DNA of 64,000 nt from Saprospiraceae bacterium (GTDB lineage Bacteria > Bacteroidota > Bacteroidia > Chitinophagales > Saprospiraceae), in contig JAYWBA010000187.1 in NCBI GenBank assembly GCA_043781915.1, forward strand, positions 931 through 64,930. The letters are read 5' to 3'. Position numbers and translations under genes: made by a program. Under the pieces are notes generated by a model. That model ran no database searches. It was given only the letters and a program-made list of their open reading frames with translations, and was not told where the DNA came from. Of the stretch, positions 5,900 through 62,397 are shown piece by piece. Positions within the stretch are counted from its first letter, which is position 1, and each line of letters begins with the position of its first letter.

Positions 5900-6154
5900 A
5901 TGGAAAATAAAAACAATGGTAGAGACCCGTTCAAATCTTTAGAAGATGAACACTCCAAAATGTTTGAGGAAGATGGCTTAGAGCGCGTTGCTCAAAATAT
6001 TGTAGATAGACATAATTCTGCGCGTTTTAGGGGCGATGTGACAGAACACTTCGTTTCGCGTGCATTTAAAACTTTAGTTGATTTTGTTGGGGGCGGAAAC
6101 GCTTCGGATACTACTAAAGACGACGATAGACCTAAAGCACCTACGGAGCGCTAA
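5900..6154 (+). CDS. Hypothetical small soluble protein downstream of the ECF sigma factor
   Basis: ORF with ATG at 5900 and no TM helix. Position suggests co-transcription with the sigma factor. No family recognised. Confidence 0.35.
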   Translation: MENKNNGRDPFKSLEDEHSKMFEEDGLERVAQNIVDRHNSARFRGDVTEHFVSRAFKTLVDFVGGGNASDTTKDDDRPKAPTER

Positions 6155-6195: not shown

Positions 6196-7020
6196 ATGGG
6201 ATTTGAAATACTTAGAAGTTTACTCTTCCAACTCACAAGCACCCTACCCAATGTTTTGGTGTCGTTGGTATTTATCATAGCAGGGTATTATATTGCAAAG
6301 TTAACCGCACGTTTTTTACAGGCTTTACTGAGTAAATTGGGTTTGGATTCTATAACTGAAAAAATAAACGATATAGACATAGTTCATAAAAGCAATTTAA
6401 AAATTCAGTTGAGTTCGATTATTGCCAATACTGTGTATTACTTAATTTTTTTGGTGTTTATAATTGCTGCCACCGATTCGTTGCGGATGCCCGCTATTTC
6501 TGACTTAGTGATGCGCGTTGTAAACTTTATTCCTAATGCGCTTGTAGCATTAATAGTATTGTTAGTTGGGCTATTAGCCGCAAATGGTTTAAAAAATATC
6601 ATTTACAGAACTTGTCGTTCGCTCAATATTGCGAGCGCAACCATCATATCGAATGCAGTTTTTTATTTTATATTTATATCAGTTGGTATCAGTGCGCTCA
6701 ATCAAGCTCAAATCGATACAACCTTTTTGAGAAATAACTTAACTGTTATTCTCGGCGGTGTAGTAGCAGCTTTTGCATTAGGTTATGGCTTAGCTTCGAA
6801 GGAAGTAATGCTTAATTTAATGGCATCATATTATTCGAAAGGCAACATAAATGTGGGTGACATAATACAAATTGGTAACCTTAAAGGCACAGTTATTTAT
6901 ATCGATAATTCATCCGTAAAACTCCAATCAGGCGAGCAACTTATTATTTTCCCTTTACATAAGTTGCTTTCAGAAGCTATAATTGTTAATCCAGGCGATA
7001 ATTTAAAAATTGATGCGTAA
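6196..7020 (+). CDS. Mechanosensitive-channel-like membrane protein (conserved TM-helix repeat, MscS-like beta domain)
   Basis: Repeated TM helices. C-terminal GDIIQIGNLKGTVIYIDNSSVKLQSGEQLIIFP resembles the MscS beta domain. Confidence 0.5.
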   Translation: MGFEILRSLLFQLTSTLPNVLVSLVFIIAGYYIAKLTARFLQALLSKLGLDSITEKINDIDIVHKSNLKIQLSSIIANTVYYLIFLVFIIAATDSLRMPAISDLVMRVVNFIPNALVALIVLLVGLLAANGLKNIIYRTCRSLNIASATIISNAVFYFIFISVGISALNQAQIDTTFLRNNLTVILGGVVAAFALGYGLASKEVMLNLMASYYSKGNINVGDIIQIGNLKGTVIYIDNSSVKLQSGEQLIIFPLHKLLSEAIIVNPGDNLKIDA

Positions 7021-7084
7021 CTTTTTTGTTGCCTGAGTGTATTTACATCGTCAGAAACAAAATTTTTTTTAAAAGTTTTCTATT

Positions 7085-8053
7085 ATGAAAATTAAAATAC
7101 TCCTCACAAGCATTTTATGCTCTCTGTTTTTATTTGCAAATGCCCAAAAAGTAGGTGATGCTAAAGATGATGTCAAAGTTCTTGAATCAAAAGATCCGAA
7201 CGGATGGAATAAAGTTGGCAGCATAGGTCTTGACTTAGCTCAACTATGGCTAATTAACCCAAGAGCTGGAGCTGGCGATAACCGTTTTGGATTTGGCGGC
7301 GGAATAACTTATTTAGCCAGCTATAAAGATACAAATGCTATCTGGACAAATCAATTCGGCGCTCAATTAGCAGTAGTGAGTGTTGCTGGAGGTCCGTTCA
7401 CAAAAGCAACAGATGCCATTCAGTTTACATCTAAAGCAGGTCGAAAAATTTCTTCTAAATGGTATTTTGGCGGTTTATTCGATTTCCAAACCCAATTGCT
7501 CAATACTTATGGTTCGAATTATTTGAGTAAAACCCCCGAAGGTGTTGATCCAACTATTGTTAAAGGACTATCTTTAACAAGCGCATTCTTTTCTCCTGCA
7601 AATATTAAATTTGCGCCTGGTTTTATTTATAAACACGACGCACATTTATCTGTATTTTTATCGCCTTTGGCTTTAAAAGCTATCATTGTTGCTGATCAAA
7701 ATTTGGCTAATTCTGGCACTTTTTTCCCAAATCCTAATAAGGATAAATCAATTGATTTCCAGTTGGGTTTTGATATACGTTTTGATTACAATAATAAATT
7801 TGCCAACGATAAAATCACTTATGTTGGTGCATTCGACTTATATTCAAACTATCTGCGTGAGCCACAAAATATGGCTGTCGAATTTTACCATACTTTGGAC
7901 TTTAACATTATTAAAAATCTTTCCATCGTTTTGAAAAGCGATTGGTTCTACGACCATAACCAATTGGTATTTATTGATGGAAATCCAAACACACCTGGCA
8001 GAAGAATGTTCTTCCGTAACGCTTTGAATTTGGCTTACAAGTATTCTTTTTAA
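7085..8053 (+). CDS. Outer-membrane beta-barrel protein (DUF3078-like)
   Basis: Signal peptide MKIKILLTSILCSLFLFANAQ, alternating beta-strand pattern, terminal aromatic YKYSF. Confidence 0.55.
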   Translation: MKIKILLTSILCSLFLFANAQKVGDAKDDVKVLESKDPNGWNKVGSIGLDLAQLWLINPRAGAGDNRFGFGGGITYLASYKDTNAIWTNQFGAQLAVVSVAGGPFTKATDAIQFTSKAGRKISSKWYFGGLFDFQTQLLNTYGSNYLSKTPEGVDPTIVKGLSLTSAFFSPANIKFAPGFIYKHDAHLSVFLSPLALKAIIVADQNLANSGTFFPNPNKDKSIDFQLGFDIRFDYNNKFANDKITYVGAFDLYSNYLREPQNMAVEFYHTLDFNIIKNLSIVLKSDWFYDHNQLVFIDGNPNTPGRRMFFRNALNLAYKYSF

Positions 8054-8074
8054 ACAAGTCTTAGATCGTTCAAT

Positions 8075-8112
8075 AAAAAAAACTGCTCCATTTTGAGCAG
8101 TTTTTTATTTAT
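8075..8112 (+). terminator. Rho-independent terminator
   Basis: AAAAAACTGCTC-loop-GAGCAGTTTTTT followed by a T-rich tract, directly after the stop at 8053. Confidence 0.7.
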
Positions 8113-8281
8113 TTTTTCGAAAGCAGCGAAACTTAAAAATTAGGCATCTAAATTGATAATTATTACATGTTACATAGTGCCTCATATTTTCTGTTAAAAA
8201 AAATATAATTTTTTAGAATTATTTGGTTTTTATGTAAACGCAAACTACTTTTATATACTTAATGATTAAACCGATACGATT

Positions 8282-8605
8282 TTGAAAAAAAACTTACTTT
8301 TACTTTCTTTTTTGTTGGTATTTTTTAGTTTTGTAGGGGCACAAAACACAACTGAACGCAAAGGCGGAACAGAACAAATCAGTATTTACCCCAATCCTGC
8401 TTCCGATTTTATTTCGGTAAGTAACGATGATAATCTGCGCGCTATTATTCTATACAATATTGTCGGAAGAAAAATCAGGCAATTCGATATTGAACACAGT
8501 GGCGCACAATACGATATTAGAGACCTGCCTGATGGCCTATATTCTGTGCATTTAATTGGTAAGAACAACAAAGTGATTAGTACACAACGTCTGACAGTTA
8601 GATAG
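8282..8605 (+). CDS. Mini T9SS substrate: signal peptide plus Por/T9SS C-terminal sorting domain only
   Basis: Signal peptide MKKNLLLLSFLLVFFSFVGAQ, then ISIYPNPASDFISVS...LPDGLYSVHLIGKNNKVISTQRLTV, typical of the T9SS CTD. TTG start. Confidence 0.6.
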   Translation: MKKNLLLLSFLLVFFSFVGAQNTTERKGGTEQISIYPNPASDFISVSNDDNLRAIILYNIVGRKIRQFDIEHSGAQYDIRDLPDGLYSVHLIGKNNKVISTQRLTVR

Positions 8606-8644
8606 TACTTGTTTTTTGTATCATTTAACCTCTGAAGGGAAATT

Positions 8645-8676
8645 AAAAAAGCACAAAGTTTACTTTGTGCTTTTTT
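8645..8676. terminator. Bidirectional terminator between convergent genes
   Basis: AAAAAAGCACAAAG-loop-CTTTGTGCTTTTTT: a symmetric A-run/T-run hairpin. Confidence 0.7.
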
Positions 8677-8725: not shown

Positions 8726-9880
8726 TCACTTAAGTTGTAATCCACCATAATTTAGTTTCGCTTTAATCATGGCTTTCCCTTTTTCAGAAACATTGTAACC
8801 TGCAATAGTTTCGTGTGATCCATGAACATCATGTAATTTTTTAACAAAAGCCTTTGGCAAATTTACATCAGAATAATTGCCCGATATTTCGCCCTGGAAG
8901 TTTGAATTTTGTGCTATATCAATCACATAGCCCGTGTAATTGGCTATGATATCAATCATATTGAATTCTGATTCTACATTCGAAATATGCACATCGCCAT
9001 AATTTGTTGAGAAATTGCCATCTTTTACAAGACTTTTAATTTTAAAATCGGTATAACTCGAATTCACGCGAATATCGCTCACTTCACTAATTTCAAAATC
9101 GCCATACCGACTATTAATGGTAATGTTTTTTGTATCGTCTAAAAAATATTGGTCATAGGCGGATTCAATCATGACATTTTTTGATTTACTGATATGGAAT
9201 TCCGAATACTTCGATTTAAGTTGAATATCTTTCATGAAGTTTGGAATATTTAAATGTGAATAGGATATATTTCCTGTCATTCCTCCTACATCATTGAGCG
9301 TTCCTTCACCATAACCTAAAGAAACATTGGCGTATTTAGCAGTCTCTAATTTAAAATTGCCGTAGTGTTGCTCAATTTTTACATAATTGTTTAACGCACC
9401 AATATTCGTGTCGCCATATTTGTTTGTTATATCTGCGTTACAATTTTTGGGCATCGATACATCGTAATCAATGGTAAAATCCTGATTATTATCTGAACCG
9501 AAAAACCAACCGCCTTTTAATTCACTAATAACCGTTTCTGCTTTTACATACGTATCGCTGTTGCTGAATTGAATATTAATTCTACTAAAAATTTTATCGG
9601 CATTAGCTTGTGAATTTGTATTTGCTGTTACGCGAACTTTAATGACTACTTTATTTTCATTGCTTGGCATAACTTTAATTTTGCCGTGCTTATTTATTAA
9701 GAATACGGCTCCATTATCATTAAGCGTATAAGTAGCGTCGAAATTTTTTACGAACTCGCCACATAAAGTTGAATCGCAAGGCGTATTATTAGCATGAATT
9801 TCGGAGCTTACGGCTATTATCCCGAACACTGTGATAAGCGTTAAAATGCTATTCTTGATTTTTTTATTAAATACCTTCAT
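8726..9880 (-). CDS. DUF4097-like putative adhesin / beta-helical protein, last gene of an ECF sigma operon
   Basis: TM/signal at the N-terminus. Repetitive beta-strand units (NISYSHLNIP, SRYGDFEISEV, TNYGDVHISNV). Overlaps the upstream anti-sigma-like gene. ATG at 9880 preferred. Confidence 0.55.
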   Translation of the reverse strand: MKVFNKKIKNSILTLITVFGIIAVSSEIHANNTPCDSTLCGEFVKNFDATYTLNDNGAVFLINKHGKIKVMPSNENKVVIKVRVTANTNSQANADKIFSRINIQFSNSDTYVKAETVISELKGGWFFGSDNNQDFTIDYDVSMPKNCNADITNKYGDTNIGALNNYVKIEQHYGNFKLETAKYANVSLGYGEGTLNDVGGMTGNISYSHLNIPNFMKDIQLKSKYSEFHISKSKNVMIESAYDQYFLDDTKNITINSRYGDFEISEVSDIRVNSSYTDFKIKSLVKDGNFSTNYGDVHISNVESEFNMIDIIANYTGYVIDIAQNSNFQGEISGNYSDVNLPKAFVKKLHDVHGSHETIAGYNVSEKGKAMIKAKLNYGGLQLK

Positions 9881-10415
9881 GATTATTAATTTTTTTTGCT
9901 TCAGTAGCGCGTGTTGCATTGTTTTGTACGCGCTCTAAAACGTGATCTAAAATACCGAGTTTAATTTGATATGAGTGTATAATGCGTTTAATAATTTCTT
10001 CTCGCGACGATTCGGGTGCATTGCGTAACTCCTCAAATAACTCGCGTTGGAAACTATCAACTTCTTGCACATCGTTTAATACCGTTGAATCACCATTATA
10101 TGACACAAGTTGCGTCATTGATTGGTTAATTTTATTGATATAGAATGTCTTTGCTTCTTCAAAATCAGGAGAAACAGCATCGGCGGCTACATCAACTTTT
10201 TTAGAGGACATCCAATTATTCACAAAAATACCTAAACCTGCACCAATAACTAATAAAGCTACGGCCGCAGCAAAGCGTAAAAGATTAAATGCAGGTTTAA
10301 TCTTTTTTTGCGGTGAAGGCAATTGTCGCTCGATGTTTTTCCAAACCGATAACGGTGGCATTTCGGCATCGAATGCTTCTCTGTTTGTTTCGACAAATTT
10401 TCTAAAATTATCCAT
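9867..10415 (-). CDS. Anti-sigma-factor-like single-pass membrane protein
   Basis: Located between the ECF sigma and DUF4097 genes. Short cytoplasmic N-terminus, TM helix FAAAVALLVIGAGLGIFV, periplasmic helical tail. Confidence 0.5.
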   Translation of the reverse strand: MDNFRKFVETNREAFDAEMPPLSVWKNIERQLPSPQKKIKPAFNLLRFAAAVALLVIGAGLGIFVNNWMSSKKVDVAADAVSPDFEEAKTFYINKINQSMTQLVSYNGDSTVLNDVQEVDSFQRELFEELRNAPESSREEIIKRIIHSYQIKLGILDHVLERVQNNATRATEAKKINNHEGI

Positions 10416-10420
10416 ATTTT

Positions 10421-10502
10421 TAGTTGATGGTTGACAGTTGACAGTTGATAGTTTTAAGAGCGATTAGCATCTGTCAACTATCAACCGTCAACTGTCAACT
10501 AA
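10421..10502. repeat. Heptamer-word hairpin (GTTGAYA words) between the sigma and anti-sigma genes
   Basis: GGTTGACAGTTGACAGTTGATAGTT at 10429-10453 pairs with the TCAAC-rich arm at about 10471-10498 with about 2 mismatches in 25. Confidence 0.8.
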
Positions 10503-11106
10503 ATAACAACGTTTTTAATTTATTTTTTGCGCGTAAATATTGCGATTTAGAAGTCGATTCTGTAATACCCAGAATAGACGCAATTTCTTCGTGATCGTAA
10601 CCTTCAAACGCATACAATGTTAAAACTACTCTATAACCTTCGGGTAAAATGTTAACCGCTTTGCGCACGCGCTCGACATTATACATCGTGAAACTTGAAT
10701 CATCCGTTTCATCAACATCGACCACTTGGTGGGCGGTGTCATTTAATTCCTGGAAATATAATTTCCGCTTTTTTATATGATTCAAACAGTTGTTTATCAC
10801 AATCCGTTTTATCCAAGTACCGACTGACGATTCAAATCTAAACGATTCCAAATTTTGAAACACATCAATAAACGCATTTTGCAAAACGTCTTGTGCAGTA
10901 TCAGCATTGTTAACCATCCGCAAGCACGTGTTGTACATAGCGCGCGCATACAAGTTGTACAACTTAAACTGTGCGTTACGGTCGCCGTGCAAACAAGCCT
11001 CCACTATGTCGTAATGAACTGCCACCTTTTCGTTGTTCGTTGTTCGTTGTTCGTTGTTCGTTGTTCGTTTAAAAGCGCTCGTAAACGAACAACGAACAAC
11101 TACCAA
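10495..11106 (-). CDS. ECF-type sigma-70 family factor (2 of 3)
   Basis: Region 2 (QDVLQNAFIDVF, VGTWIKRIVINNCLNHIKKRK) and region 4 (LPEGYRVVLTLYAFEGYDHEEIASILGITESTSKSQYLRAKNKL). The first ~27 codons are encoded by a repeat hairpin, so the true start may be GTG near 11025. Confidence 0.8.
   Translation of the reverse strand: MVVVRCSFTSAFKRTTNNEQRTTNNEKVAVHYDIVEACLHGDRNAQFKLYNLYARAMYNTCLRMVNNADTAQDVLQNAFIDVFQNLESFRFESSVGTWIKRIVINNCLNHIKKRKLYFQELNDTAHQVVDVDETDDSSFTMYNVERVRKAVNILPEGYRVVLTLYAFEGYDHEEIASILGITESTSKSQYLRAKNKLKTLLFS
11029..11100. repeat. Heptamer-word hairpin (CGTTGTT words)
   Basis: GTTGTTCGTTGTTCGTTT (11053-11070) pairs perfectly with AAACGAACAACGAACAAC (11083-11100). The left arm is extended by further CGTTGTT repeats. 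Confidence 0.85.
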
Positions 11107-30494: not shown

Positions 30495-31505
30495 ATGGAT
30501 TCAGCTTTTCCTTCTTCCGAAAACAATCATGATGCGAACAGCATAGCGCACGCGCCAGAATTTACGGCTGTTGCTGATTTCAAAAATGCTATTGCGCAAG
30601 AGCTACAAAAAATAATTGTGGGTCAAGAAAACGCGATTCAATTTTTAGTCATTGCCCTTTTGTGCGATGGACATGTACTATTAGAAGGCGTTCCAGGCAT
30701 TGCTAAAACTTTAACGGCAAAACTATTGGCGCAATCTCTCGATTTGCCTTTTGCGCGCCTACAATTTACACCCGATTTAATGCCGAGCGATATTTTGGGT
30801 ACTATGGTGTATAATGTTCAAAACGCGACGTTTTCGTTTAATAAAGGACCGATTTTTAAATCTGTTGTCTTGATTGATGAAATAAATCGTGCGCCCGCCA
30901 AAACGCAATCTGCTTTGTTTGAAGTGATGGAAGAGCGACAAATCACGGTTGAAGGCACAACGCATAAAATGCAGCCGCCATTTTTTGTCATAGCTACTCA
31001 AAATCCAATTGAGCAAGAAGGCACATATCGTTTGCCCGAGGCGCAACTCGATAGATTTATGTTTAAAATTGTGATGCCCTATCCGAGTTTAAGCGAAGAG
31101 CAAGCCATTTTAACGCGCTTTAAAGACGATTTCAAACAGCATCAAATATCGAATGTGCAGTCTATTTTTACGCTGGTCGATATTGAAAAAGCGCGCGCAG
31201 AAGTGCAAACAGTGGCTATTCACGATGATATTATTAAATATATTGCCAGTATTGTTGAAGCTACGCGCCGCAATGCCGACATTATGCTCGGCGCTTCTCC
31301 GCGCGCATCGCTCAATATTCTAAAAGGTGCAAAGGTTGTTGCTGCGCTACGGGATAGAAACTTTGTTACGCCCGACGATGTTCAAACCGTTTTGCAACCT
31401 GTGTTAAATCACCGCGTCATACTCACACCCGAAGCAGAAATGGATGGCATTACGATTCAAGAAATTTTGAAAAATATAATCGAGACAATAGAGGTACCGA
31501 GATAG
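30495..31505 (+). CDS. MoxR-family AAA+ ATPase
   Basis: VLLEGVPGIAKT (Walker A), VLIDEINRAPAKTQSALFEVMEE (Walker B/sensor), ATQNPIEQEGTYRLPEAQLDRF. Confidence 0.9.
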   Translation: MDSAFPSSENNHDANSIAHAPEFTAVADFKNAIAQELQKIIVGQENAIQFLVIALLCDGHVLLEGVPGIAKTLTAKLLAQSLDLPFARLQFTPDLMPSDILGTMVYNVQNATFSFNKGPIFKSVVLIDEINRAPAKTQSALFEVMEERQITVEGTTHKMQPPFFVIATQNPIEQEGTYRLPEAQLDRFMFKIVMPYPSLSEEQAILTRFKDDFKQHQISNVQSIFTLVDIEKARAEVQTVAIHDDIIKYIASIVEATRRNADIMLGASPRASLNILKGAKVVAALRDRNFVTPDDVQTVLQPVLNHRVILTPEAEMDGITIQEILKNIIETIEVPR

Positions 31506-31516
31506 AAATTTGTGAT

Positions 31517-32173
31517 TTAAATATTTTCAAGCGTTGAAATCCAGTTATTAAAGCGAGGCGCTTTGGCACGAATATTATCTAAGCCTATCTCTTCCGCTAT
31601 AAGTGGTCCTAAAACAGTTTTCTTATAACCGTTTATAAGTTTCAATAATCGTTTTGAAGGAGCAGTATTTGGGTTATCGTTAATTAATTCTGGATTTGGA
31701 TAATCTTCAATAATTTTTTCAAGTTCTCCCAAATTTTTAAATTCATTAGCATTTATCTGATTTTTGAAAGATAAAATATTATTGAATAATAAGCCCTCAA
31801 ACTCGTGCAATTGAACGTAAGGAATAAAACGGTGGTTCAAATCTTCAGATATATCATTCTTCATTGAAAATTCGATGAAATCCATCTTTTTATTTTTATC
31901 AACCAATTTTATTTTATCCTTCCAATTAGGAAAATTATGTTTCGATTGTATTCCATAATAATCAATTAATGTTGTGACATAAGCATCTTTATTTTGTTTC
32001 AGATATGTTTCAATTTCGTTTTTTAAACTATTCCAATGCACTATTCCACCATTTGATTTCCCAATGAGTTTCCTTTTTAAAATTATACCTTTGTTGGAGA
32101 AATGGGGATATAATAGAATTTTACAAAATTCTTGCTCGGTTTCACCCTCGCATATAATTATAATGAGCTTCAT
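31517..32173 (-). CDS. DUF4276-like (Toprim-like) protein, module 1
   Basis: MKLIIIICEGETEQEF (EG-TE motif), LIDYYG, FIPYVQLHEFEGLLF, NPELINDNPNTAPSKRL, PRFNNWISTL. Starts 2 nt after the ATPase stop codon. Confidence 0.7.
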   Translation of the reverse strand: MKLIIIICEGETEQEFCKILLYPHFSNKGIILKRKLIGKSNGGIVHWNSLKNEIETYLKQNKDAYVTTLIDYYGIQSKHNFPNWKDKIKLVDKNKKMDFIEFSMKNDISEDLNHRFIPYVQLHEFEGLLFNNILSFKNQINANEFKNLGELEKIIEDYPNPELINDNPNTAPSKRLLKLINGYKKTVLGPLIAEEIGLDNIRAKAPRFNNWISTLENI

Positions 32174-32175
32174 TT

Positions 32176-33243
32176 TTAGTTGGGTTGACCAGTTTCAATA
32201 ATACTCCTTTTCCATAAATCGTCAATGGTATGGTTGTCTAACCAAATCGCTAATTCATTTGATTCAAGTCTTTTAAATTGGGTTTCACCATTTATTTGAT
32301 CAACTGTAATAACATCTTCGGGCTTAAAGTGACTTATGAGATCTGCTGATTGTGTAGCTACTATAATTTGGCAATCTCTCGAAGCGGCTGATTGAATCAT
32401 GCCTGCTAATTTTGCAATGGCAAACGGATGTAAACCTAGTTCTGGTTCATCAATAATAATTGCGGAAGGTAAATCGGGTTGCATAAATAAAACTGTCAGG
32501 GCAATAAAACGCAAAGTTCCATCTGACAGGTCATTAACTCCATAGATAGTTGAACTCAATTTATCTCTCCATTGTAACGCAATGGAGTCAACTCCGTTAG
32601 GGTGTAAATAAAATTCGAAGAAATATGGTGCAACACTTTGGACAATCTGTACGATTCTTCTGAATGTTTTAGGATTTCTTTCACGTAACATAAATAAAAA
32701 AGCTGCGATATTTTTGCCATTTTCATAAAGAGAATACACATCGTTTCTAATATTAGATTCAATCCCGAAGGGAGAAGTCGGTCCAGTATCCTGAAAGTGA
32801 TATTTCCTCACTGAACTTAAATATTGCTTTATATCTTCAACTTTATATTCTGGATTAAATCTTAGTTTGGTTTCTTTGCCTAAATACTGATTATTATCTT
32901 TCCCAAGAATGACCTCATTTCTAAAATATGTAGTTTCAGAATTAATAAAATAAAAATTTGAATCCCCTCTTTTAATTTCAACTTCATAAGCATTATCACC
33001 AAAACCTAGCTTTAAATTAATGGCTTGTGTCACTTTGCTTCCTTTGTGAAGCATTTTTTCAAATGAACCTTTTCGTGCTATATATTCATCAAGCCTTGTT
33101 TCATACATGGCATTTAAAAATTCGAAAAAAGAGAGAAAATTTGTTTTGCCACTGCCATTTGCACCAATAAGAATATTAATAGGCTGTAGCTCAACGCGTG
33201 CATCCTTAATTGATTTATAGCCTTTTATTTCTATATAGTCCAT
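32176..33243 (-). CDS. ABC/SMC-type AAA ATPase (AAA_15/21-like), module 1
   Basis: Walker A ILIGANGSGKTNF, signature-like LSDGTLRF, Walker B AIIIDEPELGLHP, H-loop-like IVATQS. ATG at 33243 preferred over TTG at 33252. Confidence 0.8.
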   Translation of the reverse strand: MDYIEIKGYKSIKDARVELQPINILIGANGSGKTNFLSFFEFLNAMYETRLDEYIARKGSFEKMLHKGSKVTQAINLKLGFGDNAYEVEIKRGDSNFYFINSETTYFRNEVILGKDNNQYLGKETKLRFNPEYKVEDIKQYLSSVRKYHFQDTGPTSPFGIESNIRNDVYSLYENGKNIAAFLFMLRERNPKTFRRIVQIVQSVAPYFFEFYLHPNGVDSIALQWRDKLSSTIYGVNDLSDGTLRFIALTVLFMQPDLPSAIIIDEPELGLHPFAIAKLAGMIQSAASRDCQIIVATQSADLISHFKPEDVITVDQINGETQFKRLESNELAIWLDNHTIDDLWKRSIIETGQPN

Positions 33244-33381
33244 ATTGAGCAAAATAATTTCTAAAACTATACAAATTTAAAACACTTCACTCAAAAAATA
33301 CTAATTCTTTTATAAATCCCTACTTTTGCGTCTTAAACTTTGAATCAGTAAGATTGTTTAAGTTTAAATCACTCGCTCTGC

Positions 33382-35247: not shown

Positions 35248-35322
35248 GGAATAATTTATAGAGAATAGGGAATAATGAAGAGAGGAAATTATTCCCTATC
35301 ACTTATTCCTTATTCCCTATTA
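35245..35322. repeat. Word hairpin (AGGGAAT/AATAGGG words) between convergent genes
   Basis: ATAGGGAATAAT (35265-35276) pairs perfectly with ATTATTCCCTAT (35288-35299). Outer arms are imperfect. Overlaps both stop codons. Confidence 0.7.
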
Positions 35323-35796
35323 TACTACCTTATCTGCACAATTCGACGATGCAAACGCATCGGGTTTGGCTTTGAATGTAAACCCCATTCCCATAATATA
35401 ACCCATTGCTTCTTTCAAAGCCACATTCGATTGGAAATAAGGGTCAGTATTAATATCGGCATGTACTTCAAGCTCTACGTCGTATTTGTCGAGTAAATCG
35501 CACAAACCGTATGCAATTTCCACCGACTTACCCACTTCCGTAATCATGCGTTCGCGCAATGACATTGGTTTGGTTGACATATCGGGTTGAATGAACATAA
35601 AACCGCCTTTGCGTTCGCGCAAAAAAACGATAACCGATGCAAAATGGATTTCCTCGCCGCGCACCTGAGAGTCGGTGCCGATACAAACTTTGAGTTTGTT
35701 TCCGAGTTCGTGTTCTCTAATAATTGTTTGTTCTACGGCCGCTTTAATTGGTAATTCAATTTTTTGGCCGTTTAATCGTCGCCACATTTTCTCCAT
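35320..35796 (-). CDS. YkuK-like (DUF458) RNase H-fold protein
   Basis: CIGTDSQVRGEEIHFASVIVFLRERKGGFMF and HADINTD resemble the YkuK family. Confidence 0.5.
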   Translation of the reverse strand: MEKMWRRLNGQKIELPIKAAVEQTIIREHELGNKLKVCIGTDSQVRGEEIHFASVIVFLRERKGGFMFIQPDMSTKPMSLRERMITEVGKSVEIAYGLCDLLDKYDVELEVHADINTDPYFQSNVALKEAMGYIMGMGFTFKAKPDAFASSNCADKVV

Positions 35797-36239
35797 GTCT
35801 TATTTCTTTTAAAAAACAATAAATTTAACAAAATAGTTCAAATGCAAATACGTCAACAAATTTAATGTTTTTTATCAAATTTTATAATTTTAGCTACATT
35901 AAATCAATATTAATGTTTGAACAGTGTGTTGATAGTCATTAAGAATTAAGAATTAGCGGCAGCATAGTAATAGGCTCAAAACTCCTTAATTTTTAATTTT
36001 TAATTCTTCATTGAAAAATTGTTCATCCAATTTTTCAGCCTGTTGAAGCTTATAAAATGCACGTTTGTCGAAACACGTTAATTTTCATTTTTTTTTCGGT
36101 AGAAGTTTCCTTACTTTTGTAATGTAAATAGAGTTGAAATAGAAACTCGAAAGATTTTTTTCAGCCTTTTGCACTGTATTCAATTTAAAAATTTATTTAA
36201 AATTAATTAGAATTTCTTAAAAAGAAAAAACCAAGTTCT

Positions 36240-37265
36240 ATGGCTAATATCACTCCAGTTTCAACACCTTCAATGGATATTAAACCGAAAAGCTTTTGGC
36301 AAAGACCCGAAGGCACTACAGGTAGAATTTTTATGCTCGGCATTCTCGGCGGTGGTGCTTATTTATTGTATCGTGCCTTACCAACGCTGATTAAATTGGC
36401 TGAGAACACCCTTTACTTAGGGTTATTGCTCGTTGGCTTGGCTGCGCTTATTTATATGATTCTCGACCCAAAAGTGCGCAACATCGTTGGATTTATGTAC
36501 AAAAGCATTATGCGCTCAATTACAGGCATGTTTGTTCAAATCGACCCCATTGGAATTTTAAAAAGCTATGTAGAAAGTTTGCAAGAAAATCTGGCTAAAA
36601 TGAGTCGGCAGATTGGCATTTTGAAAGGACAAAAACGCCAACTCGAACAGTTAATGGATTCGAATACTAAAGAAATTGATTCGAATATGAAATTAGCGGA
36701 TCAAGCTAAAAAAACGGGACAAGATTCGCAAGTGGTTTTGTTTACGCGCAAAGCAGCTCGTATGCAAGATAGCAACGAAAAATACAGTGTGCTGTCGCGT
36801 AAAATTGAGATTTTAGAGCGCGTTCTCAATAAAATGTACGAAAATTCACAGATTTTGATGGAAGACACCAAAGATCAAGTGAAGATTAAAGAACAAGAAA
36901 GTCAAATTATCAGAACAAGTCATAGTGCTATGCGCTCCGCGATGAGTGTTTTAAGCGGCGATCCGGATAAACGCGCTATGTTCGATATGGCGATGGATAA
37001 TATTAATAACGACGTCGCTACTAAAGTCGGCGAAATGGAGCGCTTCATGGATATGTCTTCGAATTTGATGAAGTCGATTGATTTACAAAACGGCGTGTTC
37101 GAAGAAGAAGGCATGAAGATGCTGGAAGAGTGGGAGAAGAACTCAACCCTTATTTTATCGGGGGGGAAAATTGAAGAAAAAATGACACTTGCTCCACTTT
37201 CGAACACGAACATCGCACCAACTTCAACGGAATTGCGCAACGATTACGATAATTTGTTTAAGTAA
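36240..37265 (+). CDS. Membrane-anchored coiled-coil protein (PspA/IM30-like guess)
   Basis: Two N-terminal TM helices followed by about 230 aa of heptad-rich helical sequence. Confidence 0.4.
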   Translation: MANITPVSTPSMDIKPKSFWQRPEGTTGRIFMLGILGGGAYLLYRALPTLIKLAENTLYLGLLLVGLAALIYMILDPKVRNIVGFMYKSIMRSITGMFVQIDPIGILKSYVESLQENLAKMSRQIGILKGQKRQLEQLMDSNTKEIDSNMKLADQAKKTGQDSQVVLFTRKAARMQDSNEKYSVLSRKIEILERVLNKMYENSQILMEDTKDQVKIKEQESQIIRTSHSAMRSAMSVLSGDPDKRAMFDMAMDNINNDVATKVGEMERFMDMSSNLMKSIDLQNGVFEEEGMKMLEEWEKNSTLILSGGKIEEKMTLAPLSNTNIAPTSTELRNDYDNLFK

Positions 37266-51701: not shown

Positions 51702-52382
51702 TTAAAAACCAATTCCAAAAGATTGGAACACCCCCATTATAACCAAAACACCACCTGTAAGTAAACCTGCATTGTGTTCTATACTGTGCCAATTTATTTT
51801 TTTCAATCCATGCTGTACCAAATTCACCCAAAGCAACATTCCTGAAACAGAAATGATTGAATATACAGCCACTAATGTTGCCACTGCCGACAATCCAAAC
51901 TTACCCGCGCTAAAAAAAACGGCAACCACTTCAAGGCAAGGCGAAAAAAACATTAACACTAATAATTGAACCAATAACGCTCTAAAAGTATTGTTTTGTG
52001 TATTCAAATTTTCGGCAGAAAAGTGAAAATGATGGTGTGTATAATGTCGAAAAATAAAAAAAAATCCATATAAAATTAAAAACACACCCGAGACTTTGTC
52101 AAATGAATTTGAATATTTTTCGAACAGCGTTTGACCGATTAAACTAATTGCACAACAAAGCAGAACAGTGCTGAGAACGTGTGCTAAACCGAGATAGAGT
52201 GTAGCACGCATGGTTAATGCCTTCGACCAACCTGCATTTTTGGAAATAACCGTAATGGGCAACCAATGACTGGGTATCAAGGCATGAAAAAAACTGATGA
52301 GACTAACTGAAATCAAGAGTGCGGTCATGAAGGCAATAATACTGCTTTTGCCTGATTTTTTTATTTGAATTAGAAAAATCAT
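51702..52382 (-). CDS. Metal-transporter-like membrane protein (NicO/RcnA-like guess)
   Basis: Six TM helices, FFHALIPSHW (HA-x-P-x-H) and the His-rich loop HYTHHHFHF. Confidence 0.4.
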   Translation of the reverse strand: MIFLIQIKKSGKSSIIAFMTALLISVSLISFFHALIPSHWLPITVISKNAGWSKALTMRATLYLGLAHVLSTVLLCCAISLIGQTLFEKYSNSFDKVSGVFLILYGFFFIFRHYTHHHFHFSAENLNTQNNTFRALLVQLLVLMFFSPCLEVVAVFFSAGKFGLSAVATLVAVYSIISVSGMLLWVNLVQHGLKKINWHSIEHNAGLLTGGVLVIMGVFQSFGIGF

Positions 52383-52570: not shown

Positions 52571-53263
52571 TTAGTAGACAAAATAGTTTTTTTCATTTTT
52601 CAATTCAGCAATTAAAGTCTCAATCCAATTTTTAAATCTAGGACATTTTTTCATAGTTGTTGCTAAAGTATTTTCGATTGCTATTATTGGTCCATCAATA
52701 GATTTATCATAAGCAGGAATTAAATCATTTAATCTTTTAGATGGTGCTGTTTGTAACCCATCATTTAATAATTCGGGGTTAGGATTTTCTCTTACAATAC
52801 TGTACAATTTTTCTCTTCCGTCATCATCTATTTTATCAAGATAATCAAATCCTTTTGTGTCGGAAAAAAGCAAACCTTCAAATTCGTGTAATTGGATGTA
52901 AGGAATGAATCGTTCACTATTTATATTCTCGGCAATTGCTTTTTCTAAAAAATCAACACGTTGAACTTTATCTTTATCATTTATCTTTTTACTCTCTTCA
53001 AACTTTGGGAAGCTAGTATCGAGTTTAAAAAAATCAATCAACGAAGTAACGATTATATCTTTTTCACTCTTGAGTTTAGATTCGATGTTGTATTTGAATC
53101 GGTCATAATTAAGACCACCGCCTTTTTGTTTATGTTTTGAACCTGTACTAAGCAATAAGGGGCTCACATTATGTATTCCAATCGATGTGAAAAACGGAAT
53201 TAATAAAGAGTTGACGAATTCCTCCTCTGTTTGCCCTTCTACAATTATGTATAATCTTTTCAT
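52571..53263 (-). CDS. DUF4276-like (Toprim-like) protein, module 2
   Basis: MKRLYIIVEGQTEEEF, LIDFFK, FIPYIQLHEFEGLLF, NPELLNDGLQTAPSKRL, PRFKNWIETL. ATGA start/stop overlap with the ATPase gene. Confidence 0.7.
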   Translation of the reverse strand: MKRLYIIVEGQTEEEFVNSLLIPFFTSIGIHNVSPLLLSTGSKHKQKGGGLNYDRFKYNIESKLKSEKDIIVTSLIDFFKLDTSFPKFEESKKINDKDKVQRVDFLEKAIAENINSERFIPYIQLHEFEGLLFSDTKGFDYLDKIDDDGREKLYSIVRENPNPELLNDGLQTAPSKRLNDLIPAYDKSIDGPIIAIENTLATTMKKCPRFKNWIETLIAELKNEKNYFVY

Positions 53264-54375
53264 TTTGGTCGCCCTCCTATTACGTTTTTCTCCCACAATT
53301 CACCCAATGAATAATCTTCGAGCCAATGCTTTAGATTTTCTTCCGATTGACGCGTGAATACAGATTGATTGTCTTTTCTATCAACAACAATTATATCATC
53401 AGCCGAAAACTCATTCACTAAATTAACAGATTGTGTTGAAACAATTAACTGTGACTTATGTGATGCTATTCTTAATAGACCTGCCAATTTTGAAATCGCA
53501 AATGGATGTAAACCCAATTCTGGTTCATCTATAATTATTATTTCTGGTAATTCGGGTTGCAATAATAAAGTTGCTAAGCATATAAACCGTAGCGTTCCGT
53601 CCGATAGATTGTGCGCGGCAAATAATTTATCTGATCCTTTTTCTAACCACCTCAGAAAAATTTGTTGATTATTAATTTCGTCGGGTTTCAAAATAAACTT
53701 ATCCAAAAATGGCGCAACTGATTGAACAACTCTTTCAATCAATTTAAAATTTTTAGGCGATGCTTCTTGTAGTCTGTATAAAAATGCAGCGATATTGCTT
53801 GCATCTTCGCGTAAATAGGAATAATCTGTTGAAGAAGCAGGCTGTTTGATTCTTGCTTCAAAACTTGTGTCATTAAGATGAAAAGGTTTTATAGTTGAAA
53901 AGAAAGCCTTGATATCTTCATATTGATTATTTAACATACCAAGCCTTGCTTTCAAGATACTTTCAGTAGAACCTGAAATGCTGGTGTGACCTACAAACCT
54001 CAAATCTACCCATTTATCAACTTTAAAATTATCATTATTTAAATTAAACCGATCATCTGAAAAAATAAAATTTCCATTTATATCAGGCTCCAGTTTAAAA
54101 TGAAATTGGCTTTTGAAACTATTATTTAAGATGACTTCACCCGATAAAAATTTTGATTTTTTAGAACCAAAGTATAAAAAATCCTCAGCACCTCCGTTTT
54201 TTCTTACGTAAAAACTTAAATTTTCATCATAGAGATTTTTCAAAAACTTAAAAAACCCAATAAAATTACTCTTACCCGCACCATTAGCACCAATCAGAAT
54301 ATTCAACTTGCCCAGTTCAATATCTGCTTCGCGAATAGATTTAAAGTTCTGTATTTTTATTGATGCAATACCCAT
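53260..54375 (-). CDS. ABC/SMC-type AAA ATPase (AAA_15/21-like), module 2
   Basis: Walker A ILIGANGAGKSNF, LSDGTLRF, Walker B IIIIDEPELGLHP, IVSTQS. Alignable end to end with the 32176-33243 product. Confidence 0.8.
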   Translation of the reverse strand: MGIASIKIQNFKSIREADIELGKLNILIGANGAGKSNFIGFFKFLKNLYDENLSFYVRKNGGAEDFLYFGSKKSKFLSGEVILNNSFKSQFHFKLEPDINGNFIFSDDRFNLNNDNFKVDKWVDLRFVGHTSISGSTESILKARLGMLNNQYEDIKAFFSTIKPFHLNDTSFEARIKQPASSTDYSYLREDASNIAAFLYRLQEASPKNFKLIERVVQSVAPFLDKFILKPDEINNQQIFLRWLEKGSDKLFAAHNLSDGTLRFICLATLLLQPELPEIIIIDEPELGLHPFAISKLAGLLRIASHKSQLIVSTQSVNLVNEFSADDIIVVDRKDNQSVFTRQSEENLKHWLEDYSLGELWEKNVIGGRPK

Positions 54376-54501: not shown

Positions 54502-55194
54502 TTACTTATCAGGGAAACATTGCGGACCAATTGCACCACCATAATATTCGAGCAAAATATTTTTTGTAAAATTTCTAAAATTGCATTGCGCATCAAGTTG
54601 TTTCTGATAATTAGAATTAATCAACTTGTCAAAAATATTGTAAAAATACATTCCCATTCCACTTCTTTTAAAACCAATTTGAGTTGGCTCACCATTTGTA
54701 ACTGATATGCAATTTGCTCTTAAAAGTTTTTCTTTTATAGTTTTGAAAGTGTTGAAATTCCATTTTAAAGTGGTGATTACTTTTTCAAAACTTAATGTTT
54801 GTATTAATCCGCCAGGACTTGGGACATCTGAGTTAGGCTCTTTTTTATAATTGAAAGGGTCTATGTCCCATTCGGCAAACAACCCTTCTTTTCTTCGAGA
54901 GTTTTCATTCCATTCTGTTATTCTCAAATCAATCCGATTATTTTCTTTAAATTCGATATAAACCTCATAACCAATTGGAACAACTCTATTAATATATCTT
55001 TTGAGTTCAAAAATTTCAATAGTATTGAGTGTGAAATTTTCTTTTAATTCTTTCTCACTCGACATGGGCATATCATTAAAAAAATCTGAGAAAATCTTTG
55101 TTAAATCTTTTTGGCTAAAAATCTTGGAGTTAATTGCTATAAAAAAGAGAAAGCATAATACCAGTCGAGTCCTATTTAACTTTATTAGTTTCAT
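54502..55194 (-). CDS. Hypothetical secreted protein (A+T-rich, accessory)
   Basis: Signal-like N-terminus MKLIKLNRTRLVLCFLFFIAINSKIFSQ. No family recognised. Confidence 0.4.
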   Translation of the reverse strand: MKLIKLNRTRLVLCFLFFIAINSKIFSQKDLTKIFSDFFNDMPMSSEKELKENFTLNTIEIFELKRYINRVVPIGYEVYIEFKENNRIDLRITEWNENSRRKEGLFAEWDIDPFNYKKEPNSDVPSPGGLIQTLSFEKVITTLKWNFNTFKTIKEKLLRANCISVTNGEPTQIGFKRSGMGMYFYNIFDKLINSNYQKQLDAQCNFRNFTKNILLEYYGGAIGPQCFPDK

Positions 55195-59970: not shown

Positions 59971-62397
59971 ATGAACAAAGAATATGAAGAAGGCAGGAAA
60001 AAACTTGAAGAACTTATTGTTTGGAATAAGAAATTCGTTAATATAGATAGGAATGAAGATACAACTAGACTTCATTTAATTGACAGTCTCCTTTTTGATT
60101 GCCTAAACTGGAAAAAAGAAGATGTGATTACAGAAGAATCATTTGATGCAGAGTTCACCGACTACACTCTTCGTCTCCCACGCCCTTCAATTATTGTCGA
60201 AGCTAAAAGAGAGGGAAATTATTTTGAACTTCCTTCAGGTAAGAATAGAACTGAATATAATCTTTCAAATTTATGCAGGGATAATCCTGATTTAAAAAAA
60301 GCAGTCGAACAAGTTTCTGCATATTGCCAAAAAAGGGGTACCGAAATTGCAATTATTTCTAATGGTTGGCAATTAGTCTCGTTTGTTGCTGTTAGACTTG
60401 ATGGAATACCTCCTATCGAAGGTAAAGCTCTAGTTTATGACTCTTTAGAAAATATGTTAAGTAGGTTTACAGAATTTTGGAATCATTTATCATACGATGG
60501 TATAAGTAAAAAAATTCTAAAAACTCGATTATGTGGTACAATTATACCAGAATTGCCTACAAAACTATCTAGTATTATCTCAAATTACCCAGGTATCAAG
60601 AATAGAAATTCAAATCAAGCGGATTTACAAGTTTTAAGCGAAATAGTTTTTGAAGATGTTATAAAAACAGGGGAATTAGAGACAATATTTCTAGAAGAAT
60701 GCTACTGTAATGCTGGCGCTTTATCAAATTATTCTTCTCTTAGTAAAGATATTTTAAAACTAAGATATGAAAACTTTTTTGATACAGACTCTGAGAGTTT
60801 AGCCTTATCACCCGCATCAGGAAAAAAAGGTATTAATGAAGAACTAGTTAATGTTACCGCACAAAGCTTAAGCAGAAGACCAATTTTACTAATAGGTGAC
60901 GTTGGAGTTGGCAAATCGACTTTCATTAATTATTTAATAAAAGTCGAAGCTAAAGAAATTTTTGAAAACTGCATCACTTTTAAAATTGATTTAGGAAGTC
61001 AAGCTATTCTAGCTTCTAACTTGAATGAAGCTATTGTAGAAGAAATAATTAAGCAACTTTTAGACAATTACGATATAGATATTTTTGAAAACCACTTTGT
61101 TAGAGGTATTTATCATGGTGATTTTGAAAGATTTAAAAGGGGGGTTTACAAACCTTATTTCGAAAATAATCATGAAAAATCAATAGAAATTTCGATAGAA
61201 TTTTTTATTGAAAAGCAAAGAAATAAAGTAGAACATTTAAAAAACGCACTATTTCATCTCGCTAAAGGAAGAAAAAAACAAATTGTAATTTTTATAGACA
61301 ATTGCGATCAAAGAGAATATGACATTCAGCAGAAAGCTTTTTTAATTTCCAACGAAATAGCTGAACATTGGCAACCAGTAACTATTTTTTTAGCTTTACG
61401 TCCAGAAAGTTTTCATAATTCATTAAAAAAAGGATCTTTAACAGGATATCATCCCAAGGCATTTACGATTGCTCCGCCGAGAATTGATTTGGTAATTGAA
61501 AAAAGATTGGATTTTGCTAGAAAAATAGCAGAGGGAGAAATTCCATTGTCCCAATTCAATAAATCCGAAAATAAAGTTGGTATTCAATTATCGAATTTAA
61601 GTACTCTAATTCACGTTCTTATTTTTTCTTTGGAGAAGAATAAAGAACTACACAAATTTATTGAAGATATTTCTTGCGGAAATGTTCGGAAAGCTGTTGG
61701 GATGATTACTAATTTTTTGGGGAGTGGACATGTTGACACTAAAAAAATTATTCAAATTCAAGGAAATGGGGATAATTACATAATACCTCTGCATGAATTT
61801 TTTAACGCGGTAATTTATGGAGACAATATTCATTTTGACCCTAACAGTTCGCAAGTTTCAAATATTTTTGACATAAAATTTGACGATCCTAAGGAACATT
61901 TTTTAACACCAATTGTTTTAAGTATACTTGAATCACAATTGCAAGCTGTTAATAATAATGGATTTTTTGAAACATCTATTCTATCTAATCATTTGCAAAG
62001 TTTAGGATTTACAATCGATCAAATTGATATTGTATTAAGCGATTTAATTGAGAAGAATTTAATCGAGACCTCGGCTAGGGGTAGAGCCTTCACAAAAATT
62101 AATTTACCTCCGATGTTAAGACTCACTTCAACTGGCTCATATCATATCAATAATCTTTGTTCTTATTTCCCATATATTGATGCTATAATTGTCGATACTC
62201 CGATTTTCAAAGAAGCAAAAAATGAAATTAAAGATATTCATGGGATTATAAACAGGCTAGAAAGAGTTATTGTTTTCAAAAACTATCTCGATGAAATTTG
62301 GAAAAAATTTGATTCTCAGAAAACTTTTTTTAATTGGTCATCTAAATCAATTGAACTCCAAGCTGATATAAATAAAATTAAAGCAAAGCAATCTTAA
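59971..62397 (+). CDS. Fusion protein: HsdR-N/Mrr-like PD-(D/E)xK nuclease domain + P-loop NTPase + uncharacterised C-terminal region
   Basis: N-terminus NEDTTRLHLIDSLLFDCLNWKKEDVITEESFDAEFTDYTLRLPRPSIIVEAKREG...AVEQVSAYCQKRGTEIAIISNGWQLVSF. Walker A LLIGDVGVGKSTF. Walker B VIFIDNCDQRE. Visibly A+T-rich. Confidence 0.7.
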   Translation: MNKEYEEGRKKLEELIVWNKKFVNIDRNEDTTRLHLIDSLLFDCLNWKKEDVITEESFDAEFTDYTLRLPRPSIIVEAKREGNYFELPSGKNRTEYNLSNLCRDNPDLKKAVEQVSAYCQKRGTEIAIISNGWQLVSFVAVRLDGIPPIEGKALVYDSLENMLSRFTEFWNHLSYDGISKKILKTRLCGTIIPELPTKLSSIISNYPGIKNRNSNQADLQVLSEIVFEDVIKTGELETIFLEECYCNAGALSNYSSLSKDILKLRYENFFDTDSESLALSPASGKKGINEELVNVTAQSLSRRPILLIGDVGVGKSTFINYLIKVEAKEIFENCITFKIDLGSQAILASNLNEAIVEEIIKQLLDNYDIDIFENHFVRGIYHGDFERFKRGVYKPYFENNHEKSIEISIEFFIEKQRNKVEHLKNALFHLAKGRKKQIVIFIDNCDQREYDIQQKAFLISNEIAEHWQPVTIFLALRPESFHNSLKKGSLTGYHPKAFTIAPPRIDLVIEKRLDFARKIAEGEIPLSQFNKSENKVGIQLSNLSTLIHVLIFSLEKNKELHKFIEDISCGNVRKAVGMITNFLGSGHVDTKKIIQIQGNGDNYIIPLHEFFNAVIYGDNIHFDPNSSQVSNIFDIKFDDPKEHFLTPIVLSILESQLQAVNNNGFFETSILSNHLQSLGFTIDQIDIVLSDLIEKNLIETSARGRAFTKINLPPMLRLTSTGSYHINNLCSYFPYIDAIIVDTPIFKEAKNEIKDIHGIINRLERVIVFKNYLDEIWKKFDSQKTFFNWSSKSIELQADINKIKAKQS

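Follow-up and report, generated by a model that had tools for sequence, protein, structure and literature searches.

The 64,000-nt stretch of contig JAYWBA010000187.1 from a Saprospiraceae bacterium (assembly GCA_043781915.1, positions 931 to 64,930, forward strand; hereafter the window) carries on its minus strand a pair of adjacent genes that encode an ABC-type ATPase and a small protein of the DUF4276 family. The pair almost certainly belongs to HEC-01 (Hma-embedded candidate 01), a candidate system type catalogued in PADLOC-DB v2, and a second, diverged HEC-01 pair is located ~20 kb away (Table 1). An earlier note, made from the letters of the window, had described the first pair as an ATPase with a translationally coupled DUF4276 partner. 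This architecture is borne out by Pfam, the open reading frames (ORFs) and the junction: both ORFs are present at the claimed lengths of 355 and 218 amino acids (aa) with a 2-nt gap, and the motifs listed for the ATPase (GANGSGKTN, LSDGTLRF, IIIDEPELGLHP and ATQS) and for the small protein (MKLIIIICEGETEQEF, LIDYYG, QLHEFEGLLF and TAPSKRL) are all found in the translations.

The 355-aa form of the ATPase, which starts at the ATG at 33243, is the one picked by metagenome gene callers. The junction reads ...AAC TAA AA ATG AAG..., and the spacing between the ATPase stop codon and the DUF4276 start codon is consistent with translational coupling. The pair is also more A+T-rich than its neighbors, as claimed. 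The GC content of the DUF4276 gene (0.288) is the lowest among the 53 ORFs tallied in the window (z = -2.3) and that of the ATPase gene is 0.333, compared to 0.420 for the flanking moxR and 0.404 for hsp70. The cassette (~31508-33318) is the most AT-rich coding DNA of the window. The ATPase start is separated from the ATG of the divergent hsp70 by ~130 nt. Promoters of Bacteroidetes have a -7 consensus of TAnnTTTG, and on this basis TAAATTTG, within the cassette-specific upstream DNA, is a candidate promoter of the pair. The box was picked by eye; Bacteroidota promoters differ from the sigma-70 type.

Table 1. Features of the two HEC-01 pairs of the window and of relatives on other contigs. 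Positions are those of the window unless a contig is named
Feature	Position	Strand	Description
HEC-01A, ATPase	32176..33243	-	355 aa from ATG at 33243; OLD/AAA_21-type ABC ATPase
ATPase, alternative TTG start at 33252	32176..33252	-	358 aa
ATPase motifs (residues)			Walker A G27-K33; signature S240-D-G-T243; Walker B D265-E266; T297-Q-S299 at the H-loop position
HEC-01B, DUF4276 protein	31517..32173	-	218 aa
Stop/start junction TAA-AA-ATG	32171..32178	-	2-nt spacer, read directly from the sequence
Spacer between convergent moxR and DUF4276 stops	31506..31516		11 nt; left boundary of the lineage-specific cassette
Cassette-specific upstream DNA	33244..33318	-	~75 nt; holds the candidate -7 box
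Candidate Bacteroidota-type -7 box TAAATTTG	33279..33272	-	29 nt 5' of the ATPase ATG
Lineage-specific cassette	31508..33318		~1.81 kb; two genes and ~75 nt of upstream DNA
Second HEC-01A, ATPase	53260..54375	-	371 aa; PADLOC PDLC04175 1.8e-138; Pfam AAA_21 1.1e-33
Second HEC-01B, DUF4276 protein	52571..53263	-	Probably 230 aa from ATG at 53263; Pfam DUF4276 4.9e-48; PDLC04188 5.5e-76
Relative on L009			TIR response regulator, RadC and four integrases near the pair
Relative on L027			Integrase-bearing element immediately upstream of the pair
Relative on L032	5545-10838 (L032)		Pair directly after N6_Mtase/Eco57I-type methylase (694 aa) and Methylase_S specificity protein; Peptidase_M78 gene beyond
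Relative on L030			Small-gene island with HEPN protein
Relative on L023 (IMG/VR UViG_3300033402_000750)	6883-8663 (L023)		Phage; pair between baseplate/tail genes and DNA methyltransferase
Relative on L013 (Segetibacter MAG, GCA_037718855.1)	8772-10657 (L013)		Orphan DUF4276; ATPase position taken by two DDE transposase genes

Assignment to HEC-01

Both proteins of the first pair are matched in the Pfam and PADLOC profile searches that the earlier note had proposed, over their full length by the HEC-01 profiles. The ATPase matches the PADLOC HEC-01A profile PDLC04175 at 1.2e-125 (residues 1-354 of 355, profile positions 6-362 of 363), the DUF4276 protein matches the HEC-01B profile PDLC04188 at 2.8e-79 (residues 1-217, profile positions 12-225 of 230), and the two genes are adjacent, in the same orientation and in HEC-01 order. 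Profiles of other PADLOC systems score far weaker with the ATPase, including mad3 (1e-27; 1.1e-27), AriA (6e-27), AbiLi (7e-22), Old (1e-20) and GajA (2e-18). The small protein matches only HEC-01B in PADLOC and only DUF4276 in Pfam (PF14103, 1.3e-58, 198.9 bits against a cut-off of 30.2); the latter match spans the whole domain (profile positions 1-192 of 192) and upholds the family name given from the letters alone. A further PADLOC profile, PDLC04144, bears the label HEC-01B and is 395 positions long; it finds the ATPases of both window pairs (1e-30) and not the DUF4276 proteins, which suggests that its label is inconsistent.

HEC-01 is defined as an ABC ATPase paired with a TOPRIM-like protein, embedded in Hma defense loci, with a HEC-01B metal-binding site common to Burkholderia OLD (BpOLD), and was selected by the criterion that the pair is also found on its own, as a complete unit, away from Hma loci (Payne et al., bioRxiv 10.1101/2024.01.29.577857). 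Pairs that stand alone in this way occur both in the window and in 10 further contexts. A 2025 Nucleic Acids Research (NAR) paper describes DUF4276 and RloB as new members of the Toprim superfamily and Mad4 of the MADS system as a DUF4276 protein, while the Nature paper on PARIS counts MADS3-4 and AbiL among the ABC ATPase + TOPRIM systems. The parallel with OLD, PARIS and AbiL drawn in the earlier note is, thus, a view already published. As the pair is already PADLOC HEC-01, and DUF4276 is published both as a Toprim and as Mad4, the type is not new and the pair is a further example of a catalogued candidate system type. It differs from HEC-01 as published in residing outside Hma or any recognizable defense system, in its origin from a Saprospiraceae lineage that is uncultured (the nearest homolog of its DUF4276 protein is just 62% identical) and in sharing its genome region with a second diverged copy.

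The HEC-01A ATPase

HEC-01A is predicted to be a compact OLD/AAA_21-type ABC ATPase, with Pfam matches to AAA_21 (1.1e-26) and AAA_15 (3.2e-16). The residues of the Walker A, signature, Walker B and T297-Q-S299 motifs are invariant in 48 ATPase homologs. An AlphaFold2 (AF2) model of the protein, with a predicted local distance difference test score (pLDDT) of 90.4, resembles Rad50, TsOLD, PtuA (retron and Septu), SMC heads and GajA at ~1e-13 to 1e-11 by Foldseek, with RecN also among the structural neighbors. The closest solved chain by sequence is the Thermus scotoductus OLD nuclease TsOLD (6p74, 1.7e-6). The MAD3 equivalog model NF047739 is matched at 1.4e-31, with 110.1 bits against a cut-off of 420. 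The recF model TIGR00611 is matched by the N-terminal 34 residues only (3e-07, 29.9 bits against a cut-off of 172), and RecF/RecR equivalog membership is rejected on this score.

The DUF4276 protein and its Toprim-like core

The AF2 model of the DUF4276 protein (pLDDT 93.5) has the order b1(2-8)-a1-b2(30-36)-a2-b3(64-71)-helices-b4(~117-121), followed by a helical C-terminal half. Conservation was assessed in 117 family members drawn from 50%-identity clusters; the key residues of the motifs listed above are invariant in these or in a set of 57 homologs. Invariant across the 117 members are E9, G10, E13, D71, E124, E126, E162, P172, K185, F208 and W211, of which the acidic residues E9, E13, D71, E124 and E126 fall just after b1, b3 and b4 of the model. 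Toprim enzymes (DnaG-type) carry metal ligands after the corresponding strands. The conserved glutamate that ends the first strand of the beta-alpha-beta core is present as E9 after b1 (117/117 members), and the invariant E124-x-E126 after b4 of the model may complete the metal site.

The E-G-x-T-E start of the protein had been likened to the first Toprim strand of OLD nucleases, and the comparison with phage P2 Old agrees: E398-G-K-T-E402 of Old, at the start of its Pfam OLD-like_TOPRIM domain, corresponds to E9-G-x-T-E13 of DUF4276, and hhalign superposes the two motifs. Each hhalign run gave a single match to P2 Old, one aligning DUF4276 3-25 to Old 392-410 (p 0.19) and the other DUF4276 5-54 to Old 394-444 (p = 0.0088, with a probability of just 4.6%). 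These alignments are of a profile to a single sequence, as the homolog search with P2 Old 385-586 yielded 4 near-identical fragments, too few for an OLD-Toprim profile. In a permissive Pfam scan, OLD-like_TOPRIM (PF20469) was matched sub-threshold by 14 of the 117 members (best E 1.4e-4) and was the sole recurrent secondary family, the next family being matched by 5 members. Searched against BFVD, the model finds its best match in an RloB-like phage protein; the alignment runs from end to end (prob 0.97, template modeling (TM) score 0.44-0.45), at a non-significant E of 0.018. These tests appear to link DUF4276 to the OLD-type Toprim weakly, but consistently. Taken together with two published assignments, they are the grounds on which a Toprim-like core is accepted for DUF4276.

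The DxD motif that canonically follows the third strand is not seen in DUF4276, where D71-x-Y73 corresponds to D453-x-D455 of Old. As the second Asp is replaced by Tyr or Phe in 117/117 members, the catalytic geometry is considered non-canonical and the protein is filed as 'Toprim-like' and not as a canonical Toprim.

Genomic setting of the first pair

The neighbors of the pair include moxR, hsp70, an RNaseH-like gene and an M28 peptidase gene. Several metagenome contigs carry the exact protein, in every case in the order moxR / pair / hsp70 / RNaseH-like. A block beside hsp70 (35320-37265), composed of a 158-aa RNaseH_like (PF04308) gene and a 341-aa protein without a Pfam match, accompanies hsp70 on every metagenome contig that carries the pair.

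The nearest genomes are Saprospiraceae metagenome-assembled genomes (MAGs), and relatives of each flank are found without the pair. On the left, two of these MAGs (L007 and L008), whose MoxR proteins are 94% and 92% identical to that of the window, keep synteny with it from ~24.7 kb up to the moxR stop at 31505. Their alignment similarity ends a few nt beyond this stop, and what follows there is a response regulator, alanine dehydrogenase, tsaE, Rieske proteins and a murE-like gene; neither the pair nor hsp70 is present. On the right, the pair is likewise missing from two metagenome relatives (L020 and L021) whose Hsp70 proteins are 89% and 86% identical; in these, icd (isocitrate dehydrogenase) lies upstream of hsp70. 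Similarity to these relatives resumes at a conserved CTACTTTTGC block (~33320-33330), which matches the Bacteroidota -7 consensus TAnnTTTG and sets the right limit of the cassette. The hsp70 leader box TACTTTTG (33320-33330) is kept in the window and relatives. A terminator-like hairpin of icd (CAACGCAAC...GTTGCGTTG and a T-run) is present in the relatives (L020 ~5930-6000) and is gone from the window where the cassette abuts.

The earlier note had read the locus as an insertion in a housekeeping region. This holds in that moxR is convergent, hsp70 divergent and the pair absent from the relatives of both flanks; the insertion is not a clean one. A simple insertion between adjacent moxR and hsp70 genes is ruled out, as the flanks are not neighbors in the relatives examined, and the pair thus sits at a synteny breakpoint rather than at a simple insertion site. 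Around the cassette, no convincing flanking direct repeats were found, and the window holds no tRNA genes, which could serve as integration sites. The two cassette ends do carry a perfect 10-nt inverted repeat (31512-31521 and 33363-33372). Its right arm falls in the hsp70 leader, part of which is conserved in relatives, and an estimated ~5 such repeats are expected by chance in the AT-rich stretch; therefore, the repeat is rejected as an insertion signature and attributed to coincidence. The pair is best interpreted as a self-contained, horizontally acquired two-gene operon.

The second HEC-01 pair

The second pair has an operon for aromatic amino-acid biosynthesis to one side of it and an M16 peptidase gene to the other, with one small ORF on either side. 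Its genes meet in an ATGA stop/start overlap, read directly, and the mechanical ORF of its DUF4276 gene starts at the GTG at 53296. The two copies share 38% identity in their ATPases and 42% in their DUF4276 proteins, and all four HEC-01 genes are within the ten lowest-GC ORFs of the 53. The second ATPase is 47% identical to a phage-borne ATPase (L023), and in being nearer to this phage copy than to the first ATPase it points to an independent acquisition of the two pairs, as opposed to a local duplication. The small ORFs that flank the second pair, at 54502-55194 (230 aa) and 51702-52382 (226 aa) on the minus strand, have no Pfam or PADLOC match. That at 54502-55194 equals the HEC-01 genes in AT-richness (GC 0.294) and, thus, may have come with the second cassette.

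Relatives in other genomes

The DUF4276 family is large, with 4,137 clusters at 50% identity (E <= 0.001), nearly all of stand-alone proteins of ~205-245 aa. Eleven independent contexts outside the window were examined, a small sample without statistical control. In the nine of these with a junction read, as in both window pairs, the ATPase gene comes first and the DUF4276 gene follows on the same strand, with -4 to +9 nt between them. Five of the eleven contexts are tied to mobile or defense genes (L009, L027, L032, L030 and L023; Table 1). The layout on L032, adjacent to restriction-modification (RM) genes, resembles PrrC and RloAB modules, and the viral contigs L024 and L025 carry pairs as well. 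One context, that of L013, is apparently a HEC-01 locus disrupted by an insertion sequence (IS).

The pair occupies a different locus in every genome examined and is absent from close relatives. Judged from these contexts, the pair appears to behave as a mobile accessory cassette and not as a core operon.

Comparison with known systems

PARIS provides the best mechanistic model. It is likewise split into two genes, for an ABC ATPase of the AAA_15/21 kind and for a small effector of the Toprim family, and its AriA sequesters AriB and frees it upon detecting a phage protein. The two differ in that the PARIS effector is the DUF4435 protein AriB, whereas the window effector is DUF4276 and has no DUF4435 or AriB profile match in Pfam and PADLOC. 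In addition, AriA is 55 kDa compared to ~40 kDa for the 355-aa window ATPase, and AriA is not among the significant PDB sequence matches of the latter.

Within the OLD family (P2 Old of class 1 and GajA of class 2), the window ATPase has an OLD nuclease as its nearest solved sequence and resembles TsOLD and GajA in structure, and the EGxTE first Toprim motif of P2 Old is common to DUF4276. By contrast, OLD and GajA fuse the ATPase and Toprim in one polypeptide, while the window pair is two ORFs split by a stop codon, and in DUF4276 the DxD motif is D-x-Y/F. The window pair also lacks a UvrD-like partner.

Mad3-Mad4 of MADS is likewise an AAA_21-type ATPase with DUF4276; however, of the remaining six mad genes, the methyltransferase among them, none is present beside the window pair. 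In AbiL and RloA-RloB, too, an AAA_21 ATPase comes with a small partner that is Toprim-like. The window ATPase matches the AbiLi profile at 7e-22 compared to 1e-125 for HEC-01A, and neither the DUF4276 protein nor its family members have an RloB Pfam match. The system of the MANTIS preprint is unrelated, without a Toprim or ABC ATPase.

Proposed function and alternatives

A defense role is the most likely function of the window pair, by analogy to PARIS and OLD. In the proposed mechanism, HEC-01A would act as an ATP-dependent sensor or regulator and HEC-01B, with its Toprim-like metal-binding core, as a metal-dependent nuclease effector. Translational coupling would yield a fixed A:B ratio, such that A and B form a complex that holds the nuclease inactive. 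Sensing of a phage-derived cue, or one derived from a mobile genetic element (MGE), by the ATPase would license the nuclease, and the released enzyme would cut nucleic acid (DNA as in OLD/GajA or tRNA as in AriB) to stop infection. The mechanism as a whole is held with moderate confidence. The defense reading is supported by the full-length HEC-01 matches, the invariant ATPase motifs, the five invariant acidic residues and the EGxTE motif shared with OLD, as well as by the foreign character of the cassette and the occurrence of relatives in phage, by integrases and after an RM methylase. A cold-seep study reports protection of E. coli B by one HEC-01 representative, effective against at least one of T4, T5 and T7.

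Several observations weigh against a nuclease-based defense role. The single HEC-01 representative assayed by its discoverers gave E. coli no protection against any phage tried (bioRxiv 10.1101/2024.01.29.577857), and an A:B complex, nuclease activity or trigger is demonstrated for no HEC-01 member. The view of the earlier note that the DUF4276 partner is functionally uncharacterized stands as to biochemistry, of which none was found in the literature searched; it does not extend to phage assays, as HEC-01 has been tested twice, with one negative and one positive outcome. Structural comparison of the small protein, suggested as a check, gave a divided answer: aside from the RloB-like top match in BFVD, itself non-significant, Foldseek of the model against the PDB found no significant solved Toprim, with an OLD nuclease at rank 18 (E 0.21). 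DUF4276 profiles (alignments A1 and A3) searched against PDB sequences gave noise only (RecT, E 0.07; RNase HII, E 1.7). The position of the second DxD aspartate (73) is Tyr in 102 of the 117 members and Phe in the remaining 15. Among the neighbors of either window pair, PADLOC finds no match. Against the five mobile- or defense-linked contexts, another five of the eleven are lone pairs among housekeeping genes with no defense neighbors.

An alternative to the defense role is that the pair is a selfish addiction cassette of toxin-antitoxin (TA) type, in which DUF4276 would be the toxin and the ATPase its antidote, such that loss kills the cell and there is no dedicated anti-phage role. The tiny, tightly coupled two-gene cassette, which has no mobility genes and is found in many unrelated housekeeping contexts, would suit this lifestyle, as would the Pfam description of AAA_21 as 'putative AbiEii toxin, Type IV TA system' and the lack of a defense phenotype seen by the HEC-01 discoverers. 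The IS-disrupted locus of the Segetibacter MAG cuts both ways: it retains DUF4276 alone, yet an orphan DUF4276 argues against an unguarded lethal toxin unless the gene is inactivated. The protection against phage conferred by one HEC-01 representative, and the presence of relatives in a phage accessory region and beside RM genes, favor defense over addiction, and TA-like behavior and abortive-infection defense can coexist. Addiction as the sole function is, thus, regarded as unlikely.

Less probable still is that the pair is a detached sub-module or remnant of a methylation-associated system, be it Mad3-Mad4 from MADS or a module embedded in RM or Hma, that would be inactive without its partners. 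This view draws on the identity of DUF4276 as Mad4, the listing of MADS3-4 as an ABC ATPase + TOPRIM system, the matches of the ATPase to the mad3 (1.1e-27) and MAD3 (1.4e-31) profiles, the discovery of HEC-01 embedded in Hma and the one relative (L032) that follows an RM methylase and specificity gene. However, with 110 bits the ATPase falls short of the MAD3 equivalog cut-off (420), and the HEC-01 profiles score far higher. Membership in MADS is ruled out by the missed NF047739 cut-off together with the missing partner genes. Neither window pair is flanked by a methyltransferase or other PADLOC match, and one HEC-01 representative is reported active in a heterologous host. Most relatives are stand-alone with both genes intact and motifs conserved and, therefore, an autonomous function appears to be under selection.

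The weakest alternative, and a very improbable one, is an accessory role in the repair or recombination of host lesions like that of RecF (ABC-type ATPase of ~360 aa) and RecR (a Toprim protein of ~200 aa), which the pair resembles in sizes and domain pairing, in the weak match of the ATPase N-terminus to recF (TIGR00611, 3e-07), in the Rad50, RecN and SMC heads among its structural neighbors and in the placement of both window pairs among housekeeping genes; however, the recF score of 29.9 bits is far from the cut-off of 172, and the absence from closely related genomes, the foreign composition, the different locus in each genome and the two diverged copies (one closer to a phage copy) mark an accessory gene and not a core repair gene.

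With defense retained as the preferred role, a separate question is whether the DUF4276 clade, with its site of EGxTE, D-x-aromatic and E-x-E, differs mechanistically from OLD and PARIS. Such a difference is suggested by the second DxD Asp that is never present, the minimal 1.8-kb cassette that is mostly outside defense islands and the two diverged copies; it might reside in metal geometry, in substrate (a specific RNA) or in a separate trigger for each paralog, and is given a low probability. If true, a non-canonical site with a different mechanism would define a distinct branch of ATPase-gated nucleases, and the first biochemical characterization of the family would be new.

HEC-01/DUF4276 is a very large family with conflicting phenotype reports. 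What the locus adds to this family is evidence for a minimal cassette, self-contained and sharply bounded, an instance of two diverged copies that share a region of the genome and the observation that the family Toprim site is without the second DxD aspartate. These details aid mutant design and the choice of representatives, and leave the known picture of ABC ATPase + Toprim defense unchanged.

Elsewhere in the window, an 808-aa ORF on the plus strand (59971-62397) has no Pfam match and the lowest GC content at third codon positions (GC3 0.198) of the window, and may be a foreign gene.

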